Shown here: piece after piece, positions 887 through 18,270 of the stretch
Layout: every line of letters begins with the position of its first letter
Numbering within the stretch: the first letter of the stretch is position 1
Origin: a virus
Taxonomy: Duplodnaviria > Caudoviricetes
IMG/VR virus record: IMGVR_UViG_3300047483_000184
Span: 1-55,015 of that record
Direction: 5' to 3' (one strand)
Length of the DNA: 55,015 nucleotides
Made by a program: the position numbers and the translations under genes
Notes under the pieces: model-generated
Told to the model about the DNA's origin: nothing
Databases searched by the model: none
Seen by the model: only the letters and a program-made list of their open reading frames with translations

Positions 887-2305
887 TTATTGACCTGCTT
901 TTTCAAGTGCTTTTATTTTCTTTTTTAACTCTTCTGCTTTGTGGAAATACTCATAAGACATACCCTTGTATTCCTTTCTTTGCGAATAAAGATCTGATAA
1001 TATTTTTTTAAGAATAGAATCTTCGTTCTTGTACACTACACCGTTTTCACAAACAATAACATTTTTATCTTTGCGTCGTTCTTCTATTTTAGAAGATGGT
1101 ACTTTTTCAATGAATGCATCTGGTGAAACATTAAACTGTCTCATGATCGATGGATATAGTGAAGCGTAGTCAAATGCACTTACTCCTTCATAGAAACCAA
1201 CAATAGGTTCTTTAACGAAAGCTCCAGCAAATTGACCTTCTTTTTTATTATCTTCTCTGGCTTCAGTTCCGATACGTTTACCTTCAGAAGCAATCTTTCT
1301 GGCAATTAATGCTTCGGTTACAGCTACTGGTGAAGCTGCTTTATATAAAGGCATTTTTGTAATAGACGCCAAAGTAATAAGTACATCCATTGATTTTAGT
1401 TTTTTATCAATATAATAAACTAAGATGGAGTCAATTACGTTATAATAGATGTATTTGGTAAAGTTGTCTCTGTATAAATCTTGTAAAGATCCTGTGAATT
1501 TAATCTTATTTGTACCTAATACTTGACTAGAAACATAATCCAAAGAGTTTGATTCTTTAACCTTAACCGATCTATCATACTTGTCATATAATTGCATGTA
1601 ATCCAGAATTCCCATGTGTAATGGTCTACTGTCTTCTGGATCTAATGAGCCTGTTCTGGACGAACCAACTATATCGATCTGTAAATGCTTACATCGATTT
1701 ACAATGTACTGCCAGTCATAGTTGATGAAGTTCCAGCCTGTCATCATAGGAAACTTAGGCATGAATTTATAAACAAAAGTATAAACCATGTCATACTCTG
1801 TTTTAAATTTAATATATTGAAAGGTCCACTCATCACCGAATTTTTTCATGTATTCGTTAGTGTCATCTTCAATCTTTTTAATTTTGTCTGACTCTAAGTC
1901 TTCTAAACCTAATACAATTACCTTTTTGTCAGGCGTAACAATTGAAAATGCTAGAATTCTTGATTTAGCTTCTTCAGCTTTTGGGAAACCATCGACGATT
2001 TCAGTTTCAATATCGACAAAATATGTTCTAGGTGAATTGTATTCATAAATGATTTCTTTATCCTTTTCAGGTAAACCATCCATGAAATACACTAATGAAA
2101 ATTTATTAAATTGTCTAGCTTGTGAAAGCTTCACTGAACGTCCATCCCAGTTTTTAAAATCTCTACTGGCACCAGCCTCTTTAGGATCGCAAACATACCA
2201 ATTTTTAAATTGAGTAATTGGATAACGTTTAAAATCTACAGATCCTTCTTTATTGAAATATGATACAATAATTTCTTTCTCTCTTTGTTCAATGTCTAAT
2301 AGCAT
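887..2305 (-). CDS. Family B DNA polymerase, N-terminal part (3'-5' exonuclease plus motif A) of a split polymerase
   Basis: ExoI DIET, ExoII GWNFINYD, ExoIII YNVID, linker FAGAFVKEP and motif A DYASLYPS. The protein ends shortly after RKEYK with no KxxxNSxYG or YGDTDS. Likely start is ATG at 2305 (MLLDIEQ), just after the upstream stop. Confidence 0.9.
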   Translation of the reverse strand: MLLDIEQREKEIIVSYFNKEGSVDFKRYPITQFKNWYVCDPKEAGASRDFKNWDGRSVKLSQARQFNKFSLVYFMDGLPEKDKEIIYEYNSPRTYFVDIETEIVDGFPKAEEAKSRILAFSIVTPDKKVIVLGLEDLESDKIKKIEDDTNEYMKKFGDEWTFQYIKFKTEYDMVYTFVYKFMPKFPMMTGWNFINYDWQYIVNRCKHLQIDIVGSSRTGSLDPEDSRPLHMGILDYMQLYDKYDRSVKVKESNSLDYVSSQVLGTNKIKFTGSLQDLYRDNFTKYIYYNVIDSILVYYIDKKLKSMDVLITLASITKMPLYKAASPVAVTEALIARKIASEGKRIGTEAREDNKKEGQFAGAFVKEPIVGFYEGVSAFDYASLYPSIMRQFNVSPDAFIEKVPSSKIEERRKDKNVIVCENGVVYKNEDSILKKILSDLYSQRKEYKGMSYEYFHKAEELKKKIKALEKAGQ

Positions 2306-2306
2306 A

Positions 2307-2774
2307 TTAATATCCGCGTTGTTGGCGTGCTTTGTTTTCAGCTGCCTTTGTGAAGTAATAGTTATATGCTGTTTTTGCATCTAAGCCAATAGAAGCTGCG
2401 TAATTGATAAAGAAATGCAGAATGTCAATCCATTCCATGTACAATTCTTTTTTATCGCCTTCAGAAAGATCTGAAACTTTTAAAGTGTCATATTTGGTAA
2501 AGTCTTTTTTCCAGTATTTCCAAACTGCGTTACCGCTGCCATCTTTAATACCACCTAAAGCATCTGTCATTTCGTGAATTTCATCAATTACAGCATGCGT
2601 ATTTACATGCCAAAAATTCATTACTTCGCGAATTGTCATGTCTTCGAATTTGATACCGTAAGTATTTTCTTGCATCTCTTTTTGATGCTCCATTATATCT
2701 GCTAAATGGGTTGTAGATTCATCATAAAAGTCATTAACTTCTAAATCTTTGCATTCGTTGTCTATATTTGCCAT
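2307..2774 (-). CDS. All-alpha NTP pyrophosphatase, T4 gp56-like dCTPase/dUTPase
   Basis: Acidic helix DEIHEM, WKYWK and ELYMEWIDILHFF, typical of the dimeric dUTPase/gp56 family. Confidence 0.8.
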   Translation of the reverse strand: MANIDNECKDLEVNDFYDESTTHLADIMEHQKEMQENTYGIKFEDMTIREVMNFWHVNTHAVIDEIHEMTDALGGIKDGSGNAVWKYWKKDFTKYDTLKVSDLSEGDKKELYMEWIDILHFFINYAASIGLDAKTAYNYYFTKAAENKARQQRGY

Positions 2775-2790
2775 ATTCTTATTTTTCAGG

Positions 2791-2817
2791 TTATATCTAA
2801 AAAGGCTTAATTGTTTC
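2791..2817 (-). promoter_or_regulatory. Bipartite promoter candidate GAAAC-N16-ATATAA
   Basis: Minus strand gaaac-aattaagcctttttag-atataa upstream of the dCTPase/polymerase genes; same spacing as upstream of 26199 and 26494. Confidence 0.5.
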
Positions 2818-2823
2818 TATGAA

Positions 2824-3930
2824 TTATTTAAAAAATAAATTAGTTTTTAAATCTGACAATGCAGATGCTATAACTTGATGCATATCATAATACTTGTATT
2901 CTGCTAATCTACCACCAAAAAATACAGAATCCGTGTTAATTGCAGCTTGTTTGTATTTTTTATAGATATACATGTTGTGTTCATCGTTGACGGGATAATA
3001 TGGCTCTACGCCTCTTTTATAATCCACCGGATATTCCCAAGACACTAATGTATTTTTTTGATTTTTAAAATTAAAGTGTTTGTGTTCTATGCTTCTAGTG
3101 AATTGAATATCTGCTTCTGTGTAATTAACTACTGCATTGCCCTGAAAATCTGTATTTTCAAAAAAGCGTGTTTGAAATTCAACTGTTTTATATTCTAAGT
3201 CGCCGTATTTGTAATCAAAATATGCATCGATGGGACCTGTGTAAATTATTTTATTAGCTTTAGAATTCCAATAATCTTTATCTTTTAAATAATCTACTTC
3301 TAATTCTATTGAAATTCCGTCTAACATTTTTTCAAACAGACTTGTATAGCCATCGACTGGAATCCCTTGATATTTGTCATTGAAATAATTATTATCCCAC
3401 GTAAAACGAACTGGCAATCTTTTGATTATCGAAGCTGGTAAAAGCTTAGCTGATTTCTTCCATTGTTTTTCAGTGTAACCTTTGATTAATTTTTCATAAA
3501 TATCTGTTCCAACTAAAGCTAATGCTTGCTCTTCTAAATTTGTGATTTCTCCAGTGTATCTTTGTGATTCTATAATTTCTTTAGCTTCTTGTGGTTTTGT
3601 AACACCCCATAATTTATTGAAGGTCCACATTGAAAATGGTAAAGAATACATTTCACCACCGTATTTAGCAAGTGGTGAATTTCTAAAGTTATTAAACTCA
3701 CCGAATTGTTGAATCCATTGCCAAATTGTTTTATCATTGGTATGAAATATATGAGCACCGTATACATGAACGTCAATATCTTCTTCTCTTCTGGTATACG
3801 CATTTCCACCTATGTGATTTCTTTTTTCAATCACAAGTACTTTCTTGCCTAAACGGCTCAGTTCGTATGCACAAACTGAGCCGTAAAATCCTGAGCCAAC
3901 TATTAAATAATCGTAATCTTTGTTATGCAT
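2824..3930 (-). CDS. glf: UDP-galactopyranose mutase
   Basis: FAD motif IVGSGFYG, plus IGGN, HVYGAHIFHT, YQGIP, YTGPID, EPYYP and GRLAEYKYYDMHQVI. Confidence 0.95.
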   Translation of the reverse strand: MHNKDYDYLIVGSGFYGSVCAYELSRLGKKVLVIEKRNHIGGNAYTRREEDIDVHVYGAHIFHTNDKTIWQWIQQFGEFNNFRNSPLAKYGGEMYSLPFSMWTFNKLWGVTKPQEAKEIIESQRYTGEITNLEEQALALVGTDIYEKLIKGYTEKQWKKSAKLLPASIIKRLPVRFTWDNNYFNDKYQGIPVDGYTSLFEKMLDGISIELEVDYLKDKDYWNSKANKIIYTGPIDAYFDYKYGDLEYKTVEFQTRFFENTDFQGNAVVNYTEADIQFTRSIEHKHFNFKNQKNTLVSWEYPVDYKRGVEPYYPVNDEHNMYIYKKYKQAAINTDSVFFGGRLAEYKYYDMHQVIASALSDLKTNLFFK

Positions 3931-5071
3931 TTTCTAATTTAGCTTCTAAATTTTTAAAATGATTTAGATTATCTATAAGTCTTGGTTTTGCGTGTTCAAA
4001 TTCTGGATCATTGATGATTTCGTTTATTAATTTAACGCCTTCGTCAACTCTATTAGTCCAAAAACAAGCAACTGATAATTCATCATTGATATATTTACCA
4101 TAACACGTTGCGTTTACAAATAGTAGATATTTGCTTTGCGCATATTTTAAAGAAATTTTCTTAGCTCTACTTAGATAATCATAAGCTAAAGTATGATTTC
4201 CAATTTTATTCAGATAAAGACCTAAATAATAATAAGGTTCGGCTCTATCTGGTGAAAGCGTTATAGCCGTATTCATTTCATCTACAATTAAATTAGGATC
4301 TGAATCTGGCAAAGCCATCAAACATCTAGAAATTCTCATTTGTGCTTCAAATCTTTCTTCACTCCAAGTATCTTTTAATCTTGTATAAAGTCTATTCCAT
4401 TGTAAACCTTCTAACATCATATTAGAATCCATATAACTTTGTGCACAATAGAAAGCTGATCTATGATTTAATCCATCTGGGTCAAAGGCTAATGTATCAA
4501 AGAATTGTTTCTTTAATCTTTCAGCATCGTAAAAATACTTCTTAGGATCAAATGCTCTTGAACCAACAGGATCACAAATAACCCAACCTCTGGTTGATAA
4601 ATCTCCAGTGGAATAATTAGGTCTGTCAATACACTTAATAATCGTATGAGCAGTTCCACAGAATTTCCAACGCAATCTATTATTATAAACAACAGTAGCT
4701 TTATATGTTGCACTACCACGTTTCATTGTCATATAATAACAATCTTCGCCAGCATCTTCATTAGTAAAACTAAAATCACCTGCTAAAATATCATCAGCGT
4801 CTAAATGTAATACGTAATCTGTTTTATCTTTAACGTATTCCATCATTAAATTCTTGTTCTTGTCAAATCCAAACCATTCATCATTATGAATTTCTCCTGG
4901 AATACCAGTACGATCCATAAATTCTCGAACGATTTCTAAAGTTCTATCAGTAGAACCATTATCGGCAACTACAAGATAATCAATATAAGGCGCAACTGCG
5001 TCAAGTACTTGTCCGATGACATGTTCTTCATTTTTACACATAGTTGCAAATGCAAGTGTTGGTCTGTTCAT
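3923..5071 (-). CDS. Family 2 glycosyltransferase with C-terminal TPR repeats
   Basis: N-terminal GT-A motifs (MCKNEE, ADNGSTDRT, LDADD as DxD); helical TPR-like C-terminus (PDRAEPYYYLG). Overlaps glf by 8 nt. Confidence 0.88.
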   Translation of the reverse strand: MNRPTLAFATMCKNEEHVIGQVLDAVAPYIDYLVVADNGSTDRTLEIVREFMDRTGIPGEIHNDEWFGFDKNKNLMMEYVKDKTDYVLHLDADDILAGDFSFTNEDAGEDCYYMTMKRGSATYKATVVYNNRLRWKFCGTAHTIIKCIDRPNYSTGDLSTRGWVICDPVGSRAFDPKKYFYDAERLKKQFFDTLAFDPDGLNHRSAFYCAQSYMDSNMMLEGLQWNRLYTRLKDTWSEERFEAQMRISRCLMALPDSDPNLIVDEMNTAITLSPDRAEPYYYLGLYLNKIGNHTLAYDYLSRAKKISLKYAQSKYLLFVNATCYGKYINDELSVACFWTNRVDEGVKLINEIINDPEFEHAKPRLIDNLNHFKNLEAKLENA

Positions 5072-5078
5072 AATTTTA

Positions 5079-5972
5079 TTATTTTACGTCTATGATTTCG
5101 CCCCATTCTCTTTGGGCATTGATTGATTGTTTAGTGTCTTCATTTTCTGGCTTAGGATTTCCACCGACATTCCAAAACCAAGAACCTGGACTTCCATTCT
5201 TAAGCATTAATTCCCAAGCTTTTGCATCATAATTTAATGCACTTGGAAATGGTGGTTCAAATTCAGTTGCAACATTTTGACTAAATTCTTTTGGATGTGA
5301 CCATATTGTTGCTCGACCTCTTTCGCCCGCTTTAATATTTCTAGCTACTGCAACACCATTAAACTCTGCGTTTGGCCATGCGATTTGTAAAGCTCTTCCT
5401 AAAACTCCAGTTGAAATAGCGTGCCAAACTTCTTTAGGTTCTCCGTGAGTTTGAGCTAAGTCATAAGCTACTTTAACTGCAGCTGCTGTAACTAATTCGT
5501 GTCTTAAACCAAGCGGTATAAAAAAGCCATTGTTTTCTTTGGCCCAATCAGCTGCAATTTTATTAAGATTTGGCATAGCAGCGATTCTACGAAATTTCAT
5601 ATCTGCACCTCTTTCAATACAAATTGCTTGGTGATCTGAAATTTCTTTTTGACTTGGACTAAAAAGAACTAATTTTTTGTTGTATTTCTCAGCTAAATAT
5701 GCCAATGAAATTCCAGCAAAACCATATCTTGGTTGTACATAAACTAAAGTATCTGATTGACATGTTGAAACTAAAATATCACCGAAGCGACACTTAGAAC
5801 CAAAGCCCATTAAATCTTCTCTAACTACATTAAAGCCATCGTGTTCTTTTACTATAGGAGCTGGAAATGGATCTTGCCAATCTCCTGCTAATTCTAGCCA
5901 AGCATCTCTGTTTGGGTAAGCTAAATTTAAGTCTTGATTAAAATTGCTTGTTGTATGATTATTATGTGACAT
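5079..5972 (-). CDS. PLP-dependent enzyme (fold type II-like), probable DNA-modification tailoring enzyme
   Basis: VVREDL..FGSKCR (candidate PLP lysine), FFIPLG, AISTG, YDAKAW and FWNVG. Next to amino-acid:DNA transferase-like genes. Confidence 0.7.
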   Translation of the reverse strand: MSHNNHTTSNFNQDLNLAYPNRDAWLELAGDWQDPFPAPIVKEHDGFNVVREDLMGFGSKCRFGDILVSTCQSDTLVYVQPRYGFAGISLAYLAEKYNKKLVLFSPSQKEISDHQAICIERGADMKFRRIAAMPNLNKIAADWAKENNGFFIPLGLRHELVTAAAVKVAYDLAQTHGEPKEVWHAISTGVLGRALQIAWPNAEFNGVAVARNIKAGERGRATIWSHPKEFSQNVATEFEPPFPSALNYDAKAWELMLKNGSPGSWFWNVGGNPKPENEDTKQSINAQREWGEIIDVK

Positions 5973-6572
5973 TTAATCTTTTTTAAGTTTACAATTATCG
6001 AAATGCCATCTTTTGACATTTGCAGGTTTACCTATAAATTCACAATGAGGACATTGTATATTTTTTCTTTTTTTAAAGCTTTCTTTCATATTCGCAATAT
6101 GCGCTTCACTCTTTGGTCCTTTTTTATTAGATGAATCTTTATTAGGCTTTCTAAGTTTATTCAAATGTTCTTGCGTAAAAATTCTATCTTTCAGTGCTTC
6201 AGATTGTTTTCTTTTGGTTTCATCACTATGTTTTTTACCTTTCATTCCACTTGAACCGCCCAAATGATGTTGTCTAATTTTTTCTCTAACTTCATTTGTA
6301 AATATTATTTCTGAGCCTCTTGCATTATTATAGAATTCATCTGATTTTAAATCTATTTCTTTTAATATTCTTTGTTCTATAACTAAACAAGCTTCTGTAG
6401 TTCCTTCAGCTAATATTCTTCTTTGCCATTTCATATTTGGATTTTTAAAATCTTCCCAAAATATAGAACTAGAAGATGAACAAATATATCCATCGTCTTT
6501 TGAACCTTTATGATAACCAATATATTTTTTATTATTAGTTAAATTTATCCACTCGTATACAAATGCTTCCAT
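5973..6572 (-). CDS. Free-standing GIY-YIG homing endonuclease with NUMOD3 repeat(s)
   Basis: FVY..N..N.KKYIG.H, FYN, GMKGKKHSDETKRKQSEA (NUMOD3) and a C-terminal CPHC...WHFDNCK. Has its own GATATATAG motif at about 6596-6604. Confidence 0.85.
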   Translation of the reverse strand: MEAFVYEWINLTNNKKYIGYHKGSKDDGYICSSSSSIFWEDFKNPNMKWQRRILAEGTTEACLVIEQRILKEIDLKSDEFYNNARGSEIIFTNEVREKIRQHHLGGSSGMKGKKHSDETKRKQSEALKDRIFTQEHLNKLRKPNKDSSNKKGPKSEAHIANMKESFKKRKNIQCPHCEFIGKPANVKRWHFDNCKLKKD

Positions 6573-6633
6573 TGTAATTATTAAACTTGTTTATTCTATA
6601 TATCTATAATTTATGTAGAAAAAACATGTTTTA

Positions 6634-7761
6634 TTAAATGATTATATCTGGATAACTGGGTCTCCAAAGATGTTGTGTTGTTGTTGCATTAAGAATAACA
6701 TTTCCATCCGGGTGTTTAGCTAGATTAAAATCAGCGGGAAATATCCACGTATAAGGTATTCTCTTTGTTGGTGATTTAACGCCATGTGAAATTGCAATAT
6801 GTTTATACATGAAGCATGCTTTATCTTCTATATTTAACCATTTTTGACTAGTCATTGGATTCTTAGGATGATTAACTAAAGTTTCCATTTGTTCTAGCCA
6901 CAGCTCAGCATATTTATTCTCGGCAATAAACTCACCATTTTTACCAATTGTGTATTTGACTTTACCATTAACATTGGGTCCACTAAAAATCTGTTGCATA
7001 CCATCAAAGTGTCCAGTTCCACCATATAAAGGTGTTTCTGGGTCTATTAGGTGCGGATAAGCCATGGCTAAATATCTAGCTGCATTTTTACATGGATATA
7101 AAGGACTTCTAAAATTTTGGTCTTCTTTAAAATACTTTTCCATGATTTTAGCAAATTCCATCATTGTATATGGTCTGTCTAAATTCTCTAGAACATGTGA
7201 CATTTTTTCTGCTGCTCTTTTTGGACCCCATAGAAGCCACTCTTTAACGTCAGTGCCCTTTGGATAGTATATCTGAAACAAATCATTACGTGCGTGTCTA
7301 TTGTCTTTAAAATGCTTTTTGAGAGCTTCTTCACCTTCATTAATCAACATAGTTAAAGTTCCCCAGTGTTCGTTAGTAAATGAAAATACTAAAGTATACC
7401 AAAGTCTTTTCATTGGATCTGTAACATCTTTCATTAAATCACAAAATGGGTGTTCATGCCAGTGTAATCTGTGTGAAAATATCTGATAGTCTTCCGCTAA
7501 TAATTTGTCTTGTCTTTTGTCAAAGGCTTCACAAAACTCAAAGAATTTATCAAAACGTTCTTCTTGAGTCCAATCTTTCATCCAAGATTCGATAGGCTTG
7601 CCATTTTTCATTTTAACATCAGCCGTATTTGGATATTCAATATTTGTATAATGAACGCCTTCATCTTCAAACAATGATTCTGCTTGTTGATATTTCTTTT
7701 TAGACTTCGGCAATTCACATGCATCTGGTCTTATAAAATCTTCTGCTAATAGAGTATTCAT
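6634..7761 (-). CDS. Amino acid:DNA transferase-like protein (aGPT-Pplase / HhH-glycosylase fold), paralog 2
   Basis: C-terminal NIEDKACFMYKH resembles the family's E..xC...K/R motif; YGGTG glycine loop; shares layout with 7761..8984. Confidence 0.55.
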   Translation of the reverse strand: MNTLLAEDFIRPDACELPKSKKKYQQAESLFEDEGVHYTNIEYPNTADVKMKNGKPIESWMKDWTQEERFDKFFEFCEAFDKRQDKLLAEDYQIFSHRLHWHEHPFCDLMKDVTDPMKRLWYTLVFSFTNEHWGTLTMLINEGEEALKKHFKDNRHARNDLFQIYYPKGTDVKEWLLWGPKRAAEKMSHVLENLDRPYTMMEFAKIMEKYFKEDQNFRSPLYPCKNAARYLAMAYPHLIDPETPLYGGTGHFDGMQQIFSGPNVNGKVKYTIGKNGEFIAENKYAELWLEQMETLVNHPKNPMTSQKWLNIEDKACFMYKHIAISHGVKSPTKRIPYTWIFPADFNLAKHPDGNVILNATTTQHLWRPSYPDIII

Positions 7762-8984
7762 TATTTGTATATGTTTTTAACCATTTCTTTATATTGATCC
7801 ACTGTTAAACCAGCTTCTACTAAAATTTTATCATCTGATGGGTGACTAGTCATTCCATTAAAGGTTTTAACTATACCTAAATCTAACATGGCTTTTTGTC
7901 TACCAAATGGATGATCTTTAATTGTACTACTGTTCCAAACAGCGTCCATGTCTACATGGTTGTAATCTTTTCCTGGCCTTAAGTAGTTTTCGATCCATCT
8001 AATATAATCACAGGCCACATCTTCTGCGTTATATGGTAGCGATCCAGTATCTGCGTAGATCTTAGTCATAACTGCATCTAAGAATTCTTCTCCTTTTTTA
8101 TTGCCTTTGCCACCTTCAGGATCTGCTAAATAGCCGATACATTCTACTGCGTTAGTTCCATAGTAAAACATAGATTCTCTAACAACATATTCTGGGTACC
8201 AGTCAGCGATGTCTGCAATAACCGCAGCGTATTGAAAGCGGTATGCTCTTAACCCATTGTCATAGTTCCATTTGAAAAGCCATTCGCCTAATTCTCTAAG
8301 TTGTTTCTTTTCACCGGTTCTTAAATAAGTTGCCAATTCTCTGGCTAATCTCGGTGCAAATTCACATAAGTAATAATCTCCGCCTCTTTTATAAGTATAA
8401 GTAGTTTCATTAGAAAAGCCTGTCATGCCTACGAATAAATCATCTGCATTAGTTTGATTTTCCGGTGGTTTTGGAAAAGCTGGAAATTGATAACCAACTG
8501 AGGTATAAAATGGATATTGATGCGATTTAATAACTTCACACATATCTTCTATCGTATCGCATTCGTGTAAATGAAATAAAATAGTGTTATGATAACCAGA
8601 AGGTTTAGTTGCATAATTAATACCTGAACCTGTAACTCTATGCAAGATAAAAAGATAAAGCCATTCTTCAAGACCAAAAACTTGTTGTTTTCCTGTCCAG
8701 TTTTTAGCTACTTCTACTCTTTGCGAAGTGTGAATTCCGGCATTCATTTTATCCCAATATGGATGTTCTGGAGTCCAACCGTAAAAAATATCGTTTACGA
8801 TTTGAGAAAACCCAGCATATTTTCTTTCTACAACATCATATAATTCTATGTGTTCCATTAAAGAATCGCCCATATTACTTTCCATATAACCAACAGTTCC
8901 TAAATTACAAAGATCTTGCTGTTTTTTGGCAAGATCAAAGTATCTTATAAACTCATCGTAGTATTTGGTAGTTTGAATTTTCAT
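7761..8984 (-). CDS. Amino acid:DNA transferase-like protein (aGPT-Pplase / HhH-glycosylase fold), paralog 1
   Basis: YDVVERKY (cf. FxNxxRxxD), FQYAAVIADI..YP, YYGTNA and NAEDVACDYIRW match the pattern of thymidine hypermodification transferases as I recall it. Confidence 0.62.
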   Translation of the reverse strand: MKIQTTKYYDEFIRYFDLAKKQQDLCNLGTVGYMESNMGDSLMEHIELYDVVERKYAGFSQIVNDIFYGWTPEHPYWDKMNAGIHTSQRVEVAKNWTGKQQVFGLEEWLYLFILHRVTGSGINYATKPSGYHNTILFHLHECDTIEDMCEVIKSHQYPFYTSVGYQFPAFPKPPENQTNADDLFVGMTGFSNETTYTYKRGGDYYLCEFAPRLARELATYLRTGEKKQLRELGEWLFKWNYDNGLRAYRFQYAAVIADIADWYPEYVVRESMFYYGTNAVECIGYLADPEGGKGNKKGEEFLDAVMTKIYADTGSLPYNAEDVACDYIRWIENYLRPGKDYNHVDMDAVWNSSTIKDHPFGRQKAMLDLGIVKTFNGMTSHPSDDKILVEAGLTVDQYKEMVKNIYK

Positions 8985-9238
8985 TATGAACTATGATTTT
9001 CAAAAATGTCGTAATAATCACCTTCAGCTTTTACACCAACAAGACGTTCTAATTCTGTGTTTGATTCATCTACTAAAATAACAGTAGGCACACTTCTAAT
9101 TCCAAATTGAGCTGACAACTCTTCGTTCTCATCTACATTGATTTTTTCAACTTCGTATTTTTGGGCCACTTTTTCCATAATTGGTCCTAACATTCTACAA
9201 GGTCCACACCAAGGTGCAGAAAAATATAAGTATTTCAT
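8984..9238 (-). CDS. trxA: Thioredoxin
   Basis: FSAPWCGPC active site and GIRSVPT. Likely start ATG at 9238 (MKYLYF), giving 84 aa. Confidence 0.92.
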   Translation of the reverse strand: MKYLYFSAPWCGPCRMLGPIMEKVAQKYEVEKINVDENEELSAQFGIRSVPTVILVDESNTELERLVGVKAEGDYYDIFENHSS

Positions 9239-9255
9239 AAATATTGGTTTTAGTC

Positions 9256-10335
9256 CTAAAACAAGGACATTGTTTTCTTTTCTAATCTTTTGTTTGGGCA
9301 ATTCGCTGTCATGTCCCATCTGTAAAATTCTCTAGAGATATGAACTGATTTTGGTTGTTCCATCACATCAAAAGTCAATTCACCTTTATCATTGAAGTAA
9401 ACATCCGAGTGTTTATAAACTTTCCAATTGTTTCTTTTGCACATCTCATCAATGTAGTTATTGATTTCTTTCGACAATTGAGTACGCTCTAACCAAGAAC
9501 CAAAAAATGGTGTGTCTTTATAATAGCCTGTTTTTGGTAAAACTCTTGATTCATTTTCTATAGGTAAAACATGAATCAACTCAATATTGCTAATGCCATT
9601 TTCTTGTAATGCTTTAAGTTGTTGTTCATAATTTTTCATCATGATTTCAACTGCATTTTTAGGATTAGCTTGTCTCATTAAGTGATGCCTAACATCAATA
9701 TTACCCATATAACATGTTAATGTTTTGATCCATGGATAAATGTAAGATTCTAATCCTCTTTTAAGAGCACCGTGCATTGTTAATCCATCATGTCTTTGGC
9801 ACATATAACCTGCTTGATACATTCCAAAAGAGTGAGAATCACCAAAACAAAGCTTGTCTGTTTTTTCAATGTGATCAATCTTAGGAATATCATTAGCACA
9901 AATTGATTTGATTAACTCAATGTCTTGTTCTAAAGTTTTAAATAGATCTGTGCCTGTTTTTAATCGTTGTTCAATCAAAGCGCCAATGCAAGGCATATCA
10001 TGATGCAAGCTATACATCTTAACATTGCTTTTAATACGAATTATTTGATTGTATAAATCATCATTAGCTCCTCCAAAAATATTAAAGTTGCCTTTAAATT
10101 CCATACCATGATCTATCAAAATAATATCGTAATTATTCCAATCAGTTTCGTTTGAAGTAATAACATCAACATCTTTAAAACCTGCATTTGTTAATTGATT
10201 TGCAAGCATAAAACACCACGCTGATTTATGTGAACTGATCTTAGGACTTAATTTACCTACTAATGCTGAAATACCTATTTTAGCATTTTTGTCAGTAACA
10301 TAGTCTGTAAAATAACTAAAGTCTTGATTATTCAT
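9256..10335 (-). CDS. Putative fusion of a T4 beta-glucosyltransferase-like N-terminal domain and an SGNH hydrolase/acyltransferase-like domain
   Basis: N-half KIGI...DVDVI...DWNNYDIILI...NIFGG...KMYSLHHDMP resembles T4 BGT (KIAI...NVDII...DVNDYDRLIV...NFFGG...KIYYLFTD, from memory). C-half has FGDSH, MGNID and SVH. Likely start ATG at 10335. Confidence 0.5.
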   Translation of the reverse strand: MNNQDFSYFTDYVTDKNAKIGISALVGKLSPKISSHKSAWCFMLANQLTNAGFKDVDVITSNETDWNNYDIILIDHGMEFKGNFNIFGGANDDLYNQIIRIKSNVKMYSLHHDMPCIGALIEQRLKTGTDLFKTLEQDIELIKSICANDIPKIDHIEKTDKLCFGDSHSFGMYQAGYMCQRHDGLTMHGALKRGLESYIYPWIKTLTCYMGNIDVRHHLMRQANPKNAVEIMMKNYEQQLKALQENGISNIELIHVLPIENESRVLPKTGYYKDTPFFGSWLERTQLSKEINNYIDEMCKRNNWKVYKHSDVYFNDKGELTFDVMEQPKSVHISREFYRWDMTANCPNKRLEKKTMSLF

Positions 10336-10627
10336 TAGTAACTGGTTTTTCAGTGTCTTTATAACCGAATTTTTCAACATAATTATCAAGAGCGCCTAAG
10401 TAAGCGACTGCGTCTAATAAATTATCTTGTTTGTAGTTGTATGAGTGACGACTTAATTTTAATGCAACTAACGCAGCATACATGTCACTTCCTGTAAAAT
10501 CTTTACCAGTCATACCACTGGCAATTTGTGCGGCTCTGCGCATACCTTCTTCAAATGGACCATATTGACGTTCTTTTTCTTCAGAACGTTCATTTATAAT
10601 CTTGTTGGCTTGGTCTAGTATATTCAT
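10328..10627 (-). CDS. DUF6378-like small phage protein (possible nucleotide pyrophosphohydrolase)
   Basis: ILDQA..II..R..QYG, KLSR and DNLLDAVAY pattern. Confidence 0.7.
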   Translation of the reverse strand: MNILDQANKIINERSEEKERQYGPFEEGMRRAAQIASGMTGKDFTGSDMYAALVALKLSRHSYNYKQDNLLDAVAYLGALDNYVEKFGYKDTEKPVTNE

Positions 10628-11652: not shown

Positions 11653-11655
11653 ATG

Positions 11656-11687
11656 AAAAAGTCTAACCGCAGGTTAGACTTTTTTTA
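11656..11687. terminator. Bidirectional intrinsic terminator
   Basis: aaaaagtctaacc-gca-ggttagactttttt at the junction of convergent genes. Confidence 0.8.
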
Positions 11688-11908: not shown

Positions 11909-11922
11909 ACTTACATAAAATT

Positions 11923-11954
11923 AAAAAAGCTCAGTTTTTATACTGAGCTTTTTT
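11923..11954 (-). terminator. Intrinsic terminator
   Basis: aaaaaagctcagt-ttttat-actgagctttttt, downstream of the internal-protein cluster. Confidence 0.8.
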
Positions 11955-11964
11955 AATTTGTTTA

Positions 11965-14947: not shown

Positions 14948-16402
14948 TTATTTCATTTTAAATCCTAGTTTGCCATTGTCTGGACTATACACGGATTGAT
15001 TTGGCGCTTCAAACGTGAATTTAACGCCTTCTGTTGAAAATGATTTAAGATGTAACATCATCTCTTGTTTTTTAGGGGCAAAATCCAAATACAATTGTTT
15101 TACTTCTAATTTAGATAGTAATTCTGTTAAGGATGCTTGATATGTACCATTGCTATTTAAATAATCTGTAACATGGTAGCTCATAGGTCCTATGATTGCT
15201 CCATATAATTTAGTGCTCTTGATTTTATTCCACTCTACCGATTTACCCTGTGGGTATCTTCCAATAGTGCTATAAAAACCATCAAATACTTGCATAAATG
15301 AATCTGGATCTTTAGCTAAAATATCTGTAATGAATTTATTTAAACTTTCAGTGGTTACATTCTTTTCTTTAGTTATTTCAACTAATTTTTGGTAACCTGG
15401 TAAATTAAGTAATTGTGAAATAGCTAAATATCCAGCAGATACTTTATTACTTTCAACTGTATTAAAAATCTGCCAAAGTTCTCTTTGAGCTTGTGTTGTT
15501 AATTGATCTGAATCTACGTTTTTAATAATTCCAGTCAAAGTCGGTGCAGCACCTGATTTATATTTTGAAGATACTCCGTAACCATCTATGTAAAAATCTA
15601 CTAACGGATTATTTCCTGTTGGAAATTCAACTCCTTTTTCATATCCACATGCATTCATCATGTAAATAGCTCCAAGAATTTCACCAAAATCTTTACCAAC
15701 TGTATTTAAATCAGATGGATCGAATTTAGCAACAAATCCTGCAGTATTAGGTGAGTATTTAATAGTTTCTTCAAATGAATCAACATGACCTGCAGATTCA
15801 AAATTATGCTTTGAAGAATGTCCAGCAACATCATCAACCATAGAAGTTAATAAACCTACAATAACTTCTTGATCTGAAAATTTAGATCTTACTGCTTTTT
15901 TTGTAAATTCAACTAGCTGTCCTTTGTTTAAGTACGTCGGTGGTAATCCTAGTCCAGTCGGTGTTAAAATTTTAGAAGTAAATGAACCGCTTGGAACATC
16001 ATCGTTTACTATATGAAACTGTAAACCCATTGGATAATCAATTCCTTTAATAGTAACAGCATCTTCTAATTTAACAATATACGTGTAATATGTACCTGAA
16101 TATGCGCCTGCTTTATAATCTTTTGGTGAGATTGCATCAATAGAATAATTGTTTAATTCTTTTTTAAGAATTGAATTGATATTGTCAAGTGAATCATTAA
16201 CTGATTTTCCCAACATATATCTTAAATGTTTAGGTCTTCTACCTGATTCTATTTTACCATCGTGCCCGTTTTTATCAAAAATAAGTCTTAGATAATTAAT
16301 CAAGCTACTTTCATCACCTGATTTTGATTCATTTAAAGAATCGAATTGTTTATTTAATTCGGCCTGAAATCTAGCTCTAATGTCCCCTGGTGTAATTGCC
16401 AT
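14948..16402 (-). CDS. PD-(D/E)xK restriction-endonuclease-fold protein, possibly virion-packaged
   Basis: DFGEILG...EFPTGNNPLVDFYIDGYGVSSK..GAAP; N-terminal FDSLNES. Confidence 0.5.
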   Translation of the reverse strand: MAITPGDIRARFQAELNKQFDSLNESKSGDESSLINYLRLIFDKNGHDGKIESGRRPKHLRYMLGKSVNDSLDNINSILKKELNNYSIDAISPKDYKAGAYSGTYYTYIVKLEDAVTIKGIDYPMGLQFHIVNDDVPSGSFTSKILTPTGLGLPPTYLNKGQLVEFTKKAVRSKFSDQEVIVGLLTSMVDDVAGHSSKHNFESAGHVDSFEETIKYSPNTAGFVAKFDPSDLNTVGKDFGEILGAIYMMNACGYEKGVEFPTGNNPLVDFYIDGYGVSSKYKSGAAPTLTGIIKNVDSDQLTTQAQRELWQIFNTVESNKVSAGYLAISQLLNLPGYQKLVEITKEKNVTTESLNKFITDILAKDPDSFMQVFDGFYSTIGRYPQGKSVEWNKIKSTKLYGAIIGPMSYHVTDYLNSNGTYQASLTELLSKLEVKQLYLDFAPKKQEMMLHLKSFSTEGVKFTFEAPNQSVYSPDNGKLGFKMK

Positions 16403-18270
16403 TATTTATTATTTAAAAATTGTTCAAAGGTTAATATGTCTGTACTTGCTTCTGTTTCAATAGCTTCTGAAATTTTCAATGAAGTTTCTAACTTTTGTTT
16501 AAGTTCATTGAATAATGGCCCCAACGCTTTAGGTGTCATTTTATCAAAAGTCTTTTTATCATTAGCTAATAATGCTTCTCTAACTTTAGTTGCTGAAATG
16601 TCGTCGTCGTCTCTTTTGATTTCAAATAAACCAAATTCTGGTAAAACACCAAGTTCATCTCTATATTTGTCATTGTTTACTTGATAACCATATGTTTTGA
16701 AACGATCTGTTCCTGTTCCCCATAAAACTGGTTCATATTTAGGTCTCATTTCGTTAAACATCACATCAATACCTGCAGTTGGAATTACAAATATCTCTTT
16801 CAAGAAAGGATATTGTTTTTGAACTTGCATAAACATTTCGATTTGAGTTTCAGTGTCAAATGGTCTTTTAGCAGCATCGTCCTTTTGTGCTTTGGCTGCT
16901 TTAACCAAAAATACTACGACTGGATAACCATTTTGTTTGTGAATTGTTTCTAAAACTTTAGCGTGACCAAGAGTAAATGGTTGGAATCTACCAACAAACA
17001 TGTTTACTTTTTCTTTACCTTGTTCTGAATGATTAATTTTTAATGCTTCATTCATGTTAGTTTTACTAGCTGAAATCTTGTTATGCATTAAAAAATTACT
17101 GAAGTTGTGAATTGCATTTTCGTCTGCATTTTCTACAAATACCTTTTGTTCAATTACATCAATGATCTGATTTAACTGTTCTAAAATATTTGAATTTAAT
17201 AATGCAGATTCTTTTATTTTCTTTTTAGAAAAAGAGCTTAGCATGATTTTATAAAGTTCAGCTAACACTGGATTTTCTAAGTATTCTAATGTCTTTTCAT
17301 TATCAATATACTTGGTATTGATGTTAAACAAGGCTGACTTAGAAAAATCAGCTGCTCCAAAATCAACGCCAACATATTTAGTAGCATTTTCTTTAACATA
17401 TGAATTGTACATTGCTGAAATTAATTCAATATATCTTTTATCAGAAGCTGTTTCTAAAAGCTCAATACTGTCTAAATCTACTGTTGAAAAGAATTCTAAC
17501 AAATCAACCATTGTAATTTGATACATGTGACTTGCTTCTCTATTAGAAGTGTCAGCCTCATTAGCCGTTTTAAATTCTTCTAATTTAAAACTTTTAATTT
17601 GTGTTGAATCCACAAAAGAAACTATTAAACCGTCAATCGGCTTAACTAGATCTTCATTTAAAACTGTTTTATAAGCACCCGGATTAAATAATTTGTAAAT
17701 GTGGTTGGTGAACGCTTCATTTCCAAATCTTTTAGCGTATGCTTCGTTTGACATTGAAAGCAATGTCACTAAATTTCTCTTTTGATCCTCATTTAAAGTA
17801 CCATCAAAAACAATAGATGGTCCTTGTACTTGTAGTTTTTGTGCCCATTCCTTTAGAATTTTAGGATCTGTTAAAACTTTTTTAGCTTTACCATTAGTAC
17901 CTAAAACTTGAATGTGCGTTAATATCATGAAATTGAAAGGCGTTGAATCATATTCAATAGAAGCCATATTGGTTTCTGGTAAATATTCAAATCCAAACTT
18001 CCAATCGCTTGGCATTTGATTCTTTTCGTTTAATGTTAAACTTTGAAAGTGTTTAATGGCATTCTCATATACTGATGTTAACGTTCGATCTATAATATTC
18101 ATAGCTTCGTTATTTCCAGATTTGAAATACTCAAAACCTTCCATTGCTCTTCTAACATGAAATGAAGCTCCTGCAATCTTTTCAGTTACAACAACTCTCA
18201 TCTTTAACATATCGTTAAACTCGTTGGGATTTGTACCTTGGTAAAAATCTCTTAATTTTTGTAATGCCAT
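16402..18270 (-). CDS. Fusion of a degenerate RNA-ligase-fold domain and a HIGH-family (cytidylyltransferase/NMNAT-like) nucleotidyltransferase
   Basis: N-domain VTEKIAG, FEY, IDGLIV and FKL; C-domain GRFQPFTLGH and ISATKVREAL; linker NMNEA; C-terminal LTFEQFLN. Confidence 0.7.
   Translation of the reverse strand: MALQKLRDFYQGTNPNEFNDMLKMRVVVTEKIAGASFHVRRAMEGFEYFKSGNNEAMNIIDRTLTSVYENAIKHFQSLTLNEKNQMPSDWKFGFEYLPETNMASIEYDSTPFNFMILTHIQVLGTNGKAKKVLTDPKILKEWAQKLQVQGPSIVFDGTLNEDQKRNLVTLLSMSNEAYAKRFGNEAFTNHIYKLFNPGAYKTVLNEDLVKPIDGLIVSFVDSTQIKSFKLEEFKTANEADTSNREASHMYQITMVDLLEFFSTVDLDSIELLETASDKRYIELISAMYNSYVKENATKYVGVDFGAADFSKSALFNINTKYIDNEKTLEYLENPVLAELYKIMLSSFSKKKIKESALLNSNILEQLNQIIDVIEQKVFVENADENAIHNFSNFLMHNKISASKTNMNEALKINHSEQGKEKVNMFVGRFQPFTLGHAKVLETIHKQNGYPVVVFLVKAAKAQKDDAAKRPFDTETQIEMFMQVQKQYPFLKEIFVIPTAGIDVMFNEMRPKYEPVLWGTGTDRFKTYGYQVNNDKYRDELGVLPEFGLFEIKRDDDDISATKVREALLANDKKTFDKMTPKALGPLFNELKQKLETSLKISEAIETEASTDILTFEQFLNNK

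Follow-up and report, generated by a model that had tools for sequence, protein, structure and literature searches.

The ten co-oriented genes at positions 2307-10627 of the virus record IMGVR_UViG_3300047483_000184 (Duplodnaviria; Caudoviricetes) form, as we think reasonably probable, a post-replicative base-hypermodification cassette of a T4-like marine myovirus that decorates 5-hydroxymethylcytosine (hmC), and the DNA of this phage probably holds an undescribed modified cytosine. The window analysed is the whole record (55,015 bases, ~31% G+C, estimated to be 19% complete), in which all sizeable open reading frames (ORFs) lie on the minus strand; with its baseplate, tail-fibre, helicase, primase, ssDNA-binding and polymerase genes it is a fragment of a T4-like myovirus, and its source is an uncultured marine T4-like phage. 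To our knowledge, amino-acid-type DNA hypermodification has so far been found for thymine only and always begins with a DNA kinase. A preliminary description of the window had read these genes as a hypermodification cassette of the kind found in phages ViI and M6 and had taken 5-hydroxymethyluracil (hmU) as the substrate. The first part is borne out by the fold of two transferase-like proteins and by a pyridoxal 5'-phosphate (PLP) enzyme related to M6 gp52, whereas the second has to be revised: a gp56-type dCTPase in the cassette and a T4-type dCMP hydroxymethylase in relatives point to hmC.

Organization of the cassette

The co-oriented, mostly coupled run of genes described earlier is real, with junction gaps of -74 to +61 nucleotides (nt) and five junctions that abut or overlap by 1-8 nt, all on the minus strand. 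The labels DUF6378, thioredoxin and glf could be kept, since PF19905, PF00085 and TIGR00031 match above the cut-off or strongly, and a NUMOD3 ORF that the first inventory had missed was added; it is a mobile insert outside the pathway. The genes are listed in the direction of transcription, with lengths in amino acids (aa); AADT stands for amino acid:DNA transferase and HhH for helix-hairpin-helix. Behind the dCTPase gene follow the N-terminal polymerase half (2380-887) and then nrdB.

10328..10627, minus strand: DUF6378 protein, 99 aa, opening the cassette (PF19905, 43.5 bits; cut-off 27.1)
9256..10335, minus strand: BGT-N-like/SGNH-like protein, 359 aa from the ATG at 10335 (subthreshold matches and invariant motifs); P0003 is its longer 377-aa reading from the TTG at 10389
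8984..9319, minus strand: thioredoxin, 111 aa, accessory (PF00085, 62.5 bits)
7761..8984, minus strand: transferase-like protein 1 (P0002), 407 aa (predicted AADT/HhH-glycosylase-like fold; Glu321 and Cys325 invariant)
6634..7761, minus strand: transferase-like protein 2 (P0001), 375 aa, optional distant paralog (by fold and profile; first ~30 residues of low confidence)
5973..6572, minus strand: NUMOD3 homing-endonuclease-like ORF, 199 aa, mobile insert (PF07460, 24.2 bits; phrog_314, E 3.4e-24)
5079..5972, minus strand: fold-type-II PLP enzyme (P0004), 297 aa, relative of the M6 gp52 type
3923..5071, minus strand: GT2 glycosyltransferase of GT-A type, 382 aa, helical in its C-terminal part, accessory insert (PF00535)
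2824..3930, minus strand: predicted UDP-galactopyranose mutase (glf), 368 aa, accessory insert (TIGR00031, PF03275)
2307..2774, minus strand: putative T4 gp56-type dCTPase/dUTPase, 155 aa (tblastn; phrog_173, E 7.9e-14)
887..2380, minus strand: N-terminal half of a split family-B DNA polymerase, flank (PF03104 and the start of PF00136; phrog_2062, E 2.6e-81)

Pfam was applied to the window up to position 16402 and PHROGs alone to the remainder. The related loci counted below are the best 80 of 433 IMG/VR stretches of the P0002 family, and because near-duplicates are among them they are not independent of each other; for accessory genes, the denominators (62 and 46) are the loci that hold both flanking genes.

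Two transferase-like proteins

P0002 and P0001, which had been called amino acid:DNA transferase-like paralogs, are by the modelled fold and by motif AADT-like proteins outside the Pfam family PF18724; we use this label because fold and Glu/Cys motif match and profile searches fail. AlphaFold models built from the family alignments reached pLDDT 82 and pTM 0.83 for P0002 and pLDDT 81 and pTM 0.80 for P0001, and both show the HhH-glycosylase-like fold on which the preliminary description had made its reading depend. Among 48,161 PDB representatives the best match of the P0002 model in VIA-align is PaMx11 gp46 (8z2m_A; Z 8.4, rmsd 4.2, 211 residues), a glycinyltransferase with a two-helix-bundle fold whose structure has been solved (8Z2M/8Z2N; PMC11472151), and the same protein ranks first of 909 re-aligned chains for P0001 (Z 9.5, rmsd 4.1, 230/288 residues). 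The VIA-align rows below gp46 (DUF2419, AGOG, AlkA, EndoIII, MutY) are of the HhH-glycosylase type, and for P0002 the next nine rows belong to this superfamily. Foldseek likewise gives gp46 as the top match of P0001 (8z2n_B, E 0.022, probability 0.92).

Both families keep a Glu/Cys dyad, invariant in 42/42, 28/28 and 26/26 sequences of the alignments. A profile search of 1.84 billion representatives returned 163 P0002 relatives; the alignment of 42 diverse ones has nine invariant residues, including Glu321 and Cys325 (42/42), and the corresponding E312 and C316 of P0001 are kept in 26/26 relatives. The spacing E-x-x-x-C is that of the known gp46-family AADTs (E243-T-x-x-C247 in 31/31), and both pairs lie near the C-terminal end of the range aligned with gp46. 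In gp46, Glu243 and Cys247 line the active site (PMC11472151), and according to the available part of PMC8989533 a Cys and a nearby Glu are essential in M6 gp51 and ViI gp247.

The two proteins are distant paralogs by profile and fold. BLASTP of P0001 against P0002 detected no similarity and hhalign with shallow alignments gave just E 0.061, but the diverse P0002 alignment matched the P0001 family with a probability of 82% (E 1.1e-5, 130 columns), aligning E-D-V-A-C of P0002 with E-D-K-A-C of P0001. Relatives at E<=0.001 are numerous among 90%-identity clusters (954 for P0002, 470 for P0001), and the P0002 family has 433 confirmed IMG/VR stretches on contigs of up to 256 kb. Tblastn of the two proteins against 50,697 phage records found none at E<=1e-3, suggesting that, at this sensitivity, no isolate phage has them as separate genes.

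A profile check against the AADT family, on which the earlier proposal had also relied, turned out negative: PF18724 matches neither protein at E<=10 nor anything in six-frame searches of the records G000-G005, and among 66 scanned P0002-family representatives it hits one, below threshold (19.3 bits against 26.2). PF18723, the profile for the helical domain of hmU-DNA kinases, matches neither protein. PDB sequence searches with the two family alignments gave no meaningful match, hmmsearch of the two profiles against the phage M6 ORFs gave nothing, and neither did hhalign of the two alignments against the single sequences of gp46 or ORF233c of Aeromonas phage 44RR or against an AADT alignment. 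As a lead only, the nearest neighbours of P0002 and P0001 in a protein-language-model Atlas are viral clusters where PF18723 (11-36%; 11-14% in the clusters nearest to P0002) or PF18724 is carried by a minority of the members.

The SGNH-like protein as a constant partner

An acyl-type enzyme had been regarded as an add-on to the transferases. It is instead the constant partner of P0002, encoded directly upstream of the P0002 homolog on the same strand in 80/80 loci and naturally fused to it in others: seven of eight long P0002-profile representatives tested are metagenomic proteins that consist of an SGNH-like N-terminus (30-42% identical to the SGNH-like protein) and a P0002-like C-terminus (25-30% identical to P0002), and the eighth (P0257) has the P0002-like part only. 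In this family the motifs SSHK, FNIFGG, GDSHS, DGxT, GNID-R-HH and SVH are invariant, with GDSHS, GNID and the C-terminal His kept in 22/22 members. The earlier BGT-N/SGNH label is kept tentatively, on these motifs and on profile matches below threshold: Lipase_GDSL (PF00657) scores 16.5 bits against 23.6 for the window protein and reaches E<=0.1 in 7/22 members (best E 0.0038), and T4-Gluco-transf (PF09198) hits 1/22 at a subthreshold E of 0.078, the window protein itself being without a match. No Asp was seen two residues before the C-terminal His, and a PDB profile search with the family gave no match. Judged from relatives, the gene most likely starts at 10335 rather than at 10389 as first assumed.

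Among isolates, the SGNH-like domain occurs in 43 phage records, 38 of them of Aeromonas phages. The fused form is found in Aeromonas phages 44RR and 31. In 44RR2.8t the domain is the N-terminus of the 795-aa ORF233c, which adjoins a sodium:solute symporter-like gene and whose C-terminus has a faint match to PF18723 (E 0.0036; 17.2 bits, cut-off 25).

It is proposed, by analogy, that the SGNH-like protein is the activating partner of the transferase-like protein. We assign it the part of a leaving-group maker because the layout mirrors that of the hmU-DNA kinases, in which a catalytic domain is joined to an AADT-related helical domain; here the two parts are fused (seven proteins) or encoded by adjacent genes. 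The 5-hydroxymethyldeoxyuridine (5-hmdU) DNA kinases differ in that their catalytic part is a P-loop kinase, whereas here a BGT-N/SGNH-like domain carries the GDSHS, GNID and SVH motifs in place of the P-loop and PF18723 misses the helical partners.

The PLP enzyme

The PLP label of P0004 holds, with a Pfam match below the gathering score (PF00291, PALP, 24.5 bits against a cut-off of 35) and stronger evidence from its family profile. Run against the PDB, this profile has 47 matches with E<=1, nearly all of them cysteine synthases, O-acetylserine sulfhydrylases or cystathionine beta-synthases (best E 3.8e-4), with the PLP-lysine region aligned in the cysteine synthase matches. In the modification region of phage M6 (50 ORFs) it finds a single match (E 1.7e-11), which directly follows the M6 ORF hit by the AADT profile (E 2.8e-143). 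Lys60 of P0004, kept in 15/15 family members, aligns with the M6 ORF in an S-K-x-R motif, and the two proteins share the C-terminal signature PFP..YD.KAW..FWN.G. The matched ORF corresponds to gp52 in the order of genes given by Table 1 of PMC8989533, and the available part of that paper describes gp52 as a PLP-dependent decarboxylase acting on amino-acid-nucleobase conjugates in DNA. P0004 is thus a relative of this M6 gp52-type DNA-conjugate decarboxylase, with a putative decarboxylation activity, and in our view no other sequence evidence ties the window more firmly to the known hypermodification pathways.

Relatives of the PLP enzyme also occur in two other settings. In Erythrobacter phage R6L, gp1 (L090) carries one behind a DNA-methylase motif in a single protein, and in Microcystis phage Mae-JY30 one stands alone beside two ParB/sulfiredoxin genes (L091:4995-5705); both are annotated 'DNA modification methylase'. 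These phages may represent another undescribed DNA-modification context for the family.

Core genes, accessory genes and the sugar branch

Gene order is strictly conserved in the 80 loci. The conserved core comprises the DUF6378 gene (78/80 loci; 98-99% identical in the closest ones) and the SGNH-like, transferase-like, PLP and dCTPase genes, and the rest is optional. Of the composite enzyme set described earlier, only this core recurs as a whole: P0001 is found in 42/62 loci, the thioredoxin (TIGR01068, 74.9 bits, below the cut-off of 96.8) in 7/80, and the GT2 and glf genes together in 4/46 (L001, L003, L004 and L006). The composite look of the window comes from the 2.25-kb insert formed by this last pair between the PLP and dCTPase genes.

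By its scores (equivalog model TIGR00031, 420 bits with the cut-off at 303.75; PF03275, 252.8 bits; NAD_binding_8, 77 bits, for the FAD-binding N-terminus) glf encodes a bona fide UDP-galactopyranose mutase. The neighbouring protein had been labelled GT2-TPR; its GT2 part is sound (PF00535, 46.4 bits against 23.3, with DNGSTD and DADD motifs) and the TPR part faint (E 0.026-0.079). Does this pair act on DNA? We lean moderately towards a DNA role, as suggested by analogy. The insert lies inside the cassette, from PLP to dCTPase, on the same strand and overlapping or abutting its neighbours. Phage DNA glycosyltransferases with a GT-A fold are known (available part of bioRxiv 10.1101/2023.12.21.572611), and the glf of Rhizobium phage RL38J1, to which the window glf is 47.6% identical, has been proposed to supply UDP-galactofuranose for cytosine glycosylation (PMC13326640). 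The clusters for glycosylated 5-hydroxycytosine in RL38J1 and other Pootjesviridae resemble the present region in combining a phage glf with DNA-modification genes and a glycosyltransferase (PMC13326640); they differ in that here the thymidylate synthase (TS) homolog of relatives keeps Asp169 and the sugar genes are an optional add-on to an amino-acid-type cassette. An independent glf/SGNH-like neighbourhood exists in Aeromonas phage 50AhydR13PP (L106:6766-10035), where glf (gp130), a 358-aa protein (gp131) and the SGNH-like gene (gp132) follow each other. This block is located between motA and asiA, the position taken by ORF233c in 44RR, which has no glf; the P0002, P0001 and PLP profiles matched none of seven selected 50AhydR13PP genes.

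That only the core modifies DNA, and that GT2 and glf are an unrelated insert glycosylating virion proteins (e.g. collagen-like fibres) or a host surface glycan, is a real possibility, though one we hold to be less than even. The pair is missing from 42 of 46 loci, including L007 (91-94% identity), and glf is 84% identical in its four loci, as against 95-99% for the flanking genes and 89-91% for GT2, a divergence typical of a hyperplastic spot. The closest relatives of the GT2 protein reside in huge uncultured phages and are without DNA-related annotation, and its sequence faintly resembles the peptide S-glycosyltransferase SunS (24 bits, where the cut-off is 350). G001, the closest relative with a complete genome (see below), has at least five other glycosyltransferases or sugar enzymes, some beside collagen-like fibre genes; its glycan genes elsewhere in the genome include GT1, GT2 (twice), GT9, GT25, an epimerase and a carbamoyltransferase. 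Because the pair is rare and G001 has so many other glycan genes, GT2 and glf may serve a non-DNA glycan. The position of the insert, the gene order in 50AhydR13PP and the published precedents speak for the DNA role that we prefer.

Sugars could also be central in another way, if the 359-aa protein were a BGT-derived DNA-binding part joined to an SGNH domain that O-acylates or deacylates a sugar attached to DNA, the helical proteins being base-flipping scaffolds in what is mainly a glycosylation system. The N-terminal resemblance to T4 beta-glucosyltransferase (one of 22 members, with FNIFGG) and the location of the isolate homologs in T4-like Aeromonas phages, beside a symporter-like gene in 44RR and near glf in 50AhydR13PP, agree with this idea. 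We nevertheless judge it improbable: the BGT signal is far below threshold, 42 of 46 loci have no glycosyltransferase between the core genes, and the PLP enzyme, a decarboxylase relative that requires an amino-acid adduct, is a constant part of the core.

The target base

The cassette closes with the 155-aa protein labelled dCTPase/dUTPase, a label upheld by tblastn matches in 1449 phage records, mostly of T4-type phages, at 33-35% identity over 97% of the protein; 695 of the 1449 records cover at least 80% of the query, and the genes are annotated '56: gp56', dCTP pyrophosphatase or dUTPase. Pfam dUTPase_2 matches at E 0.047 only. These matches identify it, on sequence grounds, as a probable T4 gp56-type dCTPase.

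Neither a hydroxymethylase nor a DNA kinase gene is present in the window, as already stated in the preliminary description of this 19%-complete record. Beyond the window, the search of relatives yielded the first and not the second. G001 (256,444 bases with terminal repeats), 95-99% identical at the protein level across the cassette, carries, besides a normal thyA, a further TS homolog (301 aa; PF00303, 75.7 bits), whose best PDB matches are T4 deoxycytidylate hydroxymethylase (6l18, 1b49; E 2.9e-19). It has Asp at the position of Asn177 of E. coli ThyA and retains Asp169 (...SND......D). The same gene and motif occur in G004, split in two ORFs, and a 58%-identical copy with one in-frame TAA in G008, so that gp42-like TS genes were found in three of the ten related records searched; the other seven are 29-64% complete. 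Asp at N177 marks the choice of cytosine, and D169N is the signature of 5-hydroxycytosine synthases (PMC13326640). We considered the TS homolog as a 5-hydroxycytosine synthase and rejected this assignment because Asp169 is kept and the D169N mark is absent.

For the kinase, PF18723 matched nothing in five records including the complete G001, and PF18724 likewise nothing. The Pfam inventory of G001 (203/249 ORFs) contains only small AAA_33/Zeta-toxin-like and guanylate-kinase-like P-loop proteins and no hmU-DNA kinase; the 46 unscanned ORFs are the block shared with the window, covered by Pfam to 16402 and by PHROGs beyond. Taken together, the gp56 homolog, the gp42-like hydroxymethylase in relatives and the absence of an hmU-DNA kinase indicate that the target base is probably hmC, not hmU. 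The nucleotide genes resemble the hmC system of T4 (gp42, gp1, gp56 and the alpha- and beta-glucosyltransferases) in the gp56 homolog of the cassette, the gp42-like hydroxymethylase of relatives and a 239-aa AAA_33/Zeta-like P-loop nucleotide-kinase-like protein of G001, and the T4 likeness extends to gp23, gp20, terminase and clamp loader. In contrast to T4, no alpha- or beta-glucosyltransferase was recognised among the scanned G001 ORFs, and the post-replicative step would here fall to the AADT-like, SGNH-like and PLP enzymes.

A pathway like that of ViI, M6 and PaMx11, with hmU as the base, would require genes for a hydroxymethylase and an hmU-DNA kinase in other parts of the genome. Wherever relatives of the fold or of the PLP enzyme have been characterised, they act on derivatives of thymidine (available part of PMC8989533; PMC11472151), the gp56 family by annotation hydrolyses dUTP as well, and the dCMP deaminase of G001 could supply dUMP. 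Yet the sole extra TS homolog of G001, G004 and G008 is closest to the T4 dCMP hydroxymethylase and, in G001 and G004, carries the cytosine-selecting Asp, the canonical thyA is kept, the complete G001 lacks a PF18723 kinase, and the cassette sits in a T4-like replication module beside the gp56 homolog. These features make a thymidine pathway distinctly improbable.

Proposed pathway and its weak points

The scheme that follows is a predicted chemistry; what was computed are families, folds, motifs, gene order and fusions. We propose that hm-dCTP is made as in T4 and dCTP destroyed, so that new DNA would carry hmC. The SGNH-like protein would esterify the 5-hydroxymethyl group while the helical transferase-like protein holds the flipped-out base, the ester standing in for the phosphate that a DNA kinase adds in the thymidine pathways. 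The Cys of the transferase-like protein would then attack C6, the leaving group would depart and an amino acid would join the exocyclic C5 methylene, in line with the AADT mechanism proposed in the available part of PMC8989533. The PLP enzyme would decarboxylate the appended amino acid. That this amino acid has a free amine is assumed because PLP chemistry needs one and no radical S-adenosylmethionine (radical-SAM) isomerase was found in the cassette or in the parts of G001 and of the window scanned with Pfam, and linkage through the side chain, as in the serine route of ViI, would predict an aminoethoxymethyl-type cytosine; by this analogy, such a linkage and product are the simplest guess. 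P0001, where present, may handle another co-substrate or sequence context. In the sub-lineage with the insert, glf would make UDP-galactofuranose and GT2 transfer galactofuranose, most plausibly to unmodified hmC. The complete scheme, with ATP-independent SGNH activation, amino-acid swap and decarboxylation (a cytosine counterpart of 5-(2-aminoethoxy)methyldeoxyuridine, 5-NeOmdU, of ViI) plus galactofuranose, and thus two undescribed cytosine hypermodifications at once, is offered as a speculative model that is rather unlikely to be right in every part.

In the thymidine pathways of M6, ViI and PaMx11, a dUMP hydroxymethylase, a 5-hmdU DNA kinase, an amino acid:DNA transferase and a PLP decarboxylase or flavin adenine dinucleotide (FAD) lyase act together. 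The present cassette shares with them the transferase fold (gp46 as best match), a Glu/Cys dyad of like spacing, a homologous PLP enzyme encoded beside the transferase gene and clustering near replication genes; a pair of paralogous transferase-like genes is, in the available part of PMC8989533, also frequent there. It differs from them in having no PF18724 member and no 5-HMUDK kinase, in its constant and sometimes fused SGNH-like partner, in nucleotide genes that point to cytosine and in belonging to a T4-like marine myovirus. Literature searches found no description of the cassette or of an amino-acid-modified cytosine, their coverage ending short of the supplements of PMC13326640 and PMC8989533, which may list such contigs.

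Several observations weigh against an AADT-type hypermodification of hmC. P0002 and P0001 have no Pfam (even at E<=10), PHROG or NCBIfam match, and hhalign of their families against 31 true PF18724 members gave a probability of about 1%. Foldseek against the PDB found nothing at E<=0.001 for either model, Z scores of 8-9.5 fall where VIA-align warns of values common for helical proteins, and the dyads are equated with that of gp46 by motif spacing and approximate location. For SGNH and BGT-N the sequence matches stay below threshold, and for the putative ester step no acyl donor was identified. The hydroxymethylase was found in relatives only and not in the 19%-complete window record, and G001 encodes a dCMP deaminase in addition to its normal thyA. 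The absence of a radical-SAM enzyme refers to 203/249 G001 ORFs (Pfam, E<=1e-5) and to the window up to 16402, with PHROGs alone covering the rest of the window. For the sugar branch, the rarity of the GT2-glf pair and the faster divergence of glf belong here as well.

That the helical proteins are instead glycosylase-like repair or anti-defence proteins in a loose run of replication-associated accessory genes, as the Z scores of HhH glycosylases and a queuine salvage enzyme near that of gp46 and the lack of a family-level sequence match to AADT might suggest, is very hard to reconcile with the strict gene order in 80 loci, the natural fusions, the co-occurrence with a DNA-conjugate decarboxylase relative and an invariant Glu/Cys dyad, which is characteristic of AADT, glycosylases having Asp/Lys instead.

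Neighbouring features

The polymerase gene follows the dCTPase gene in 44/46 loci. The earlier statement that the cassette leads into the DNA polymerase gene is right as to position. The polymerase is split, however, and the window ORF supplies its N-terminal half alone, with the exonuclease domain and the beginning of the polymerase domain; in G001 (L095:7930-9126) the C-terminal half (398 aa) lies ~4 kb further on, past nrdB, nrdA and a 249-aa ORF. The NUMOD3 ORF matches just the C-terminal DNA-binding part of longer endonuclease profiles and is present in 5/80 loci. A sigma-70-like site is located at 10674-10645, near the start of the DUF6378 gene; such sites are not enriched in the window (61 versus 57.6 +/- 6.9 in shuffles). 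Upstream of the cassette, two intergenic palindromic hairpins with T runs after them (11918-11959, 18 pairs; 11655-11685, 14 pairs) are possible bidirectional terminators or PeSL-like recombination motifs. Further upstream, a 622-aa protein with a C-terminal cytidylyl/adenylyltransferase-like domain (16402-18270, minus strand) is kept in most related loci at 45-97% identity.

The DUF6378 protein has no PDB sequence match. Its homologs are found in 243 phage records of unrelated types, including 113 mycobacteriophages, where they are often mislabelled phosphofructokinase, and 109 Escherichia siphophages; one is also present in Pantoea phage MED16, given as having deazaguanine-modified DNA in the part of the source available. 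Megablast of the whole region against the 50,697 phage records gave no match. In G001, ClpP and a ClpB-like ATPase flank the hydroxymethylase gene, with a LOG/SLOG protein nearby (L100, L102). Its other genes include ones for anti-defence proteins resembling Acb1 and Tad3 and for several fibre proteins with collagen repeats, besides numerous glycan genes.

Implications

The specific addition of this window is the GT2-glf insert together with its parallel in a cultured Aeromonas phage. The insert would be a case of a sugar branch stacked on an amino-acid branch. The cultured Aeromonas phages with the SGNH-like gene, fused in 44RR and 31 and linked to glf in 50AhydR13PP, are an experimental entry point, and new DNA-acting transferases, esterases and decarboxylases would be potential tools for hmC labelling and detection. 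If our interpretation is true, it suggests that the transferase chemistry has moved onto T4-style hmC with an activating enzyme of esterase fold. Because P0002 relatives are common (954 clusters, 433 IMG/VR stretches), a sizeable group of abundant ocean phages may carry a base that is unaccounted for by sequencing, by restriction-based methods and in studies of defence systems.

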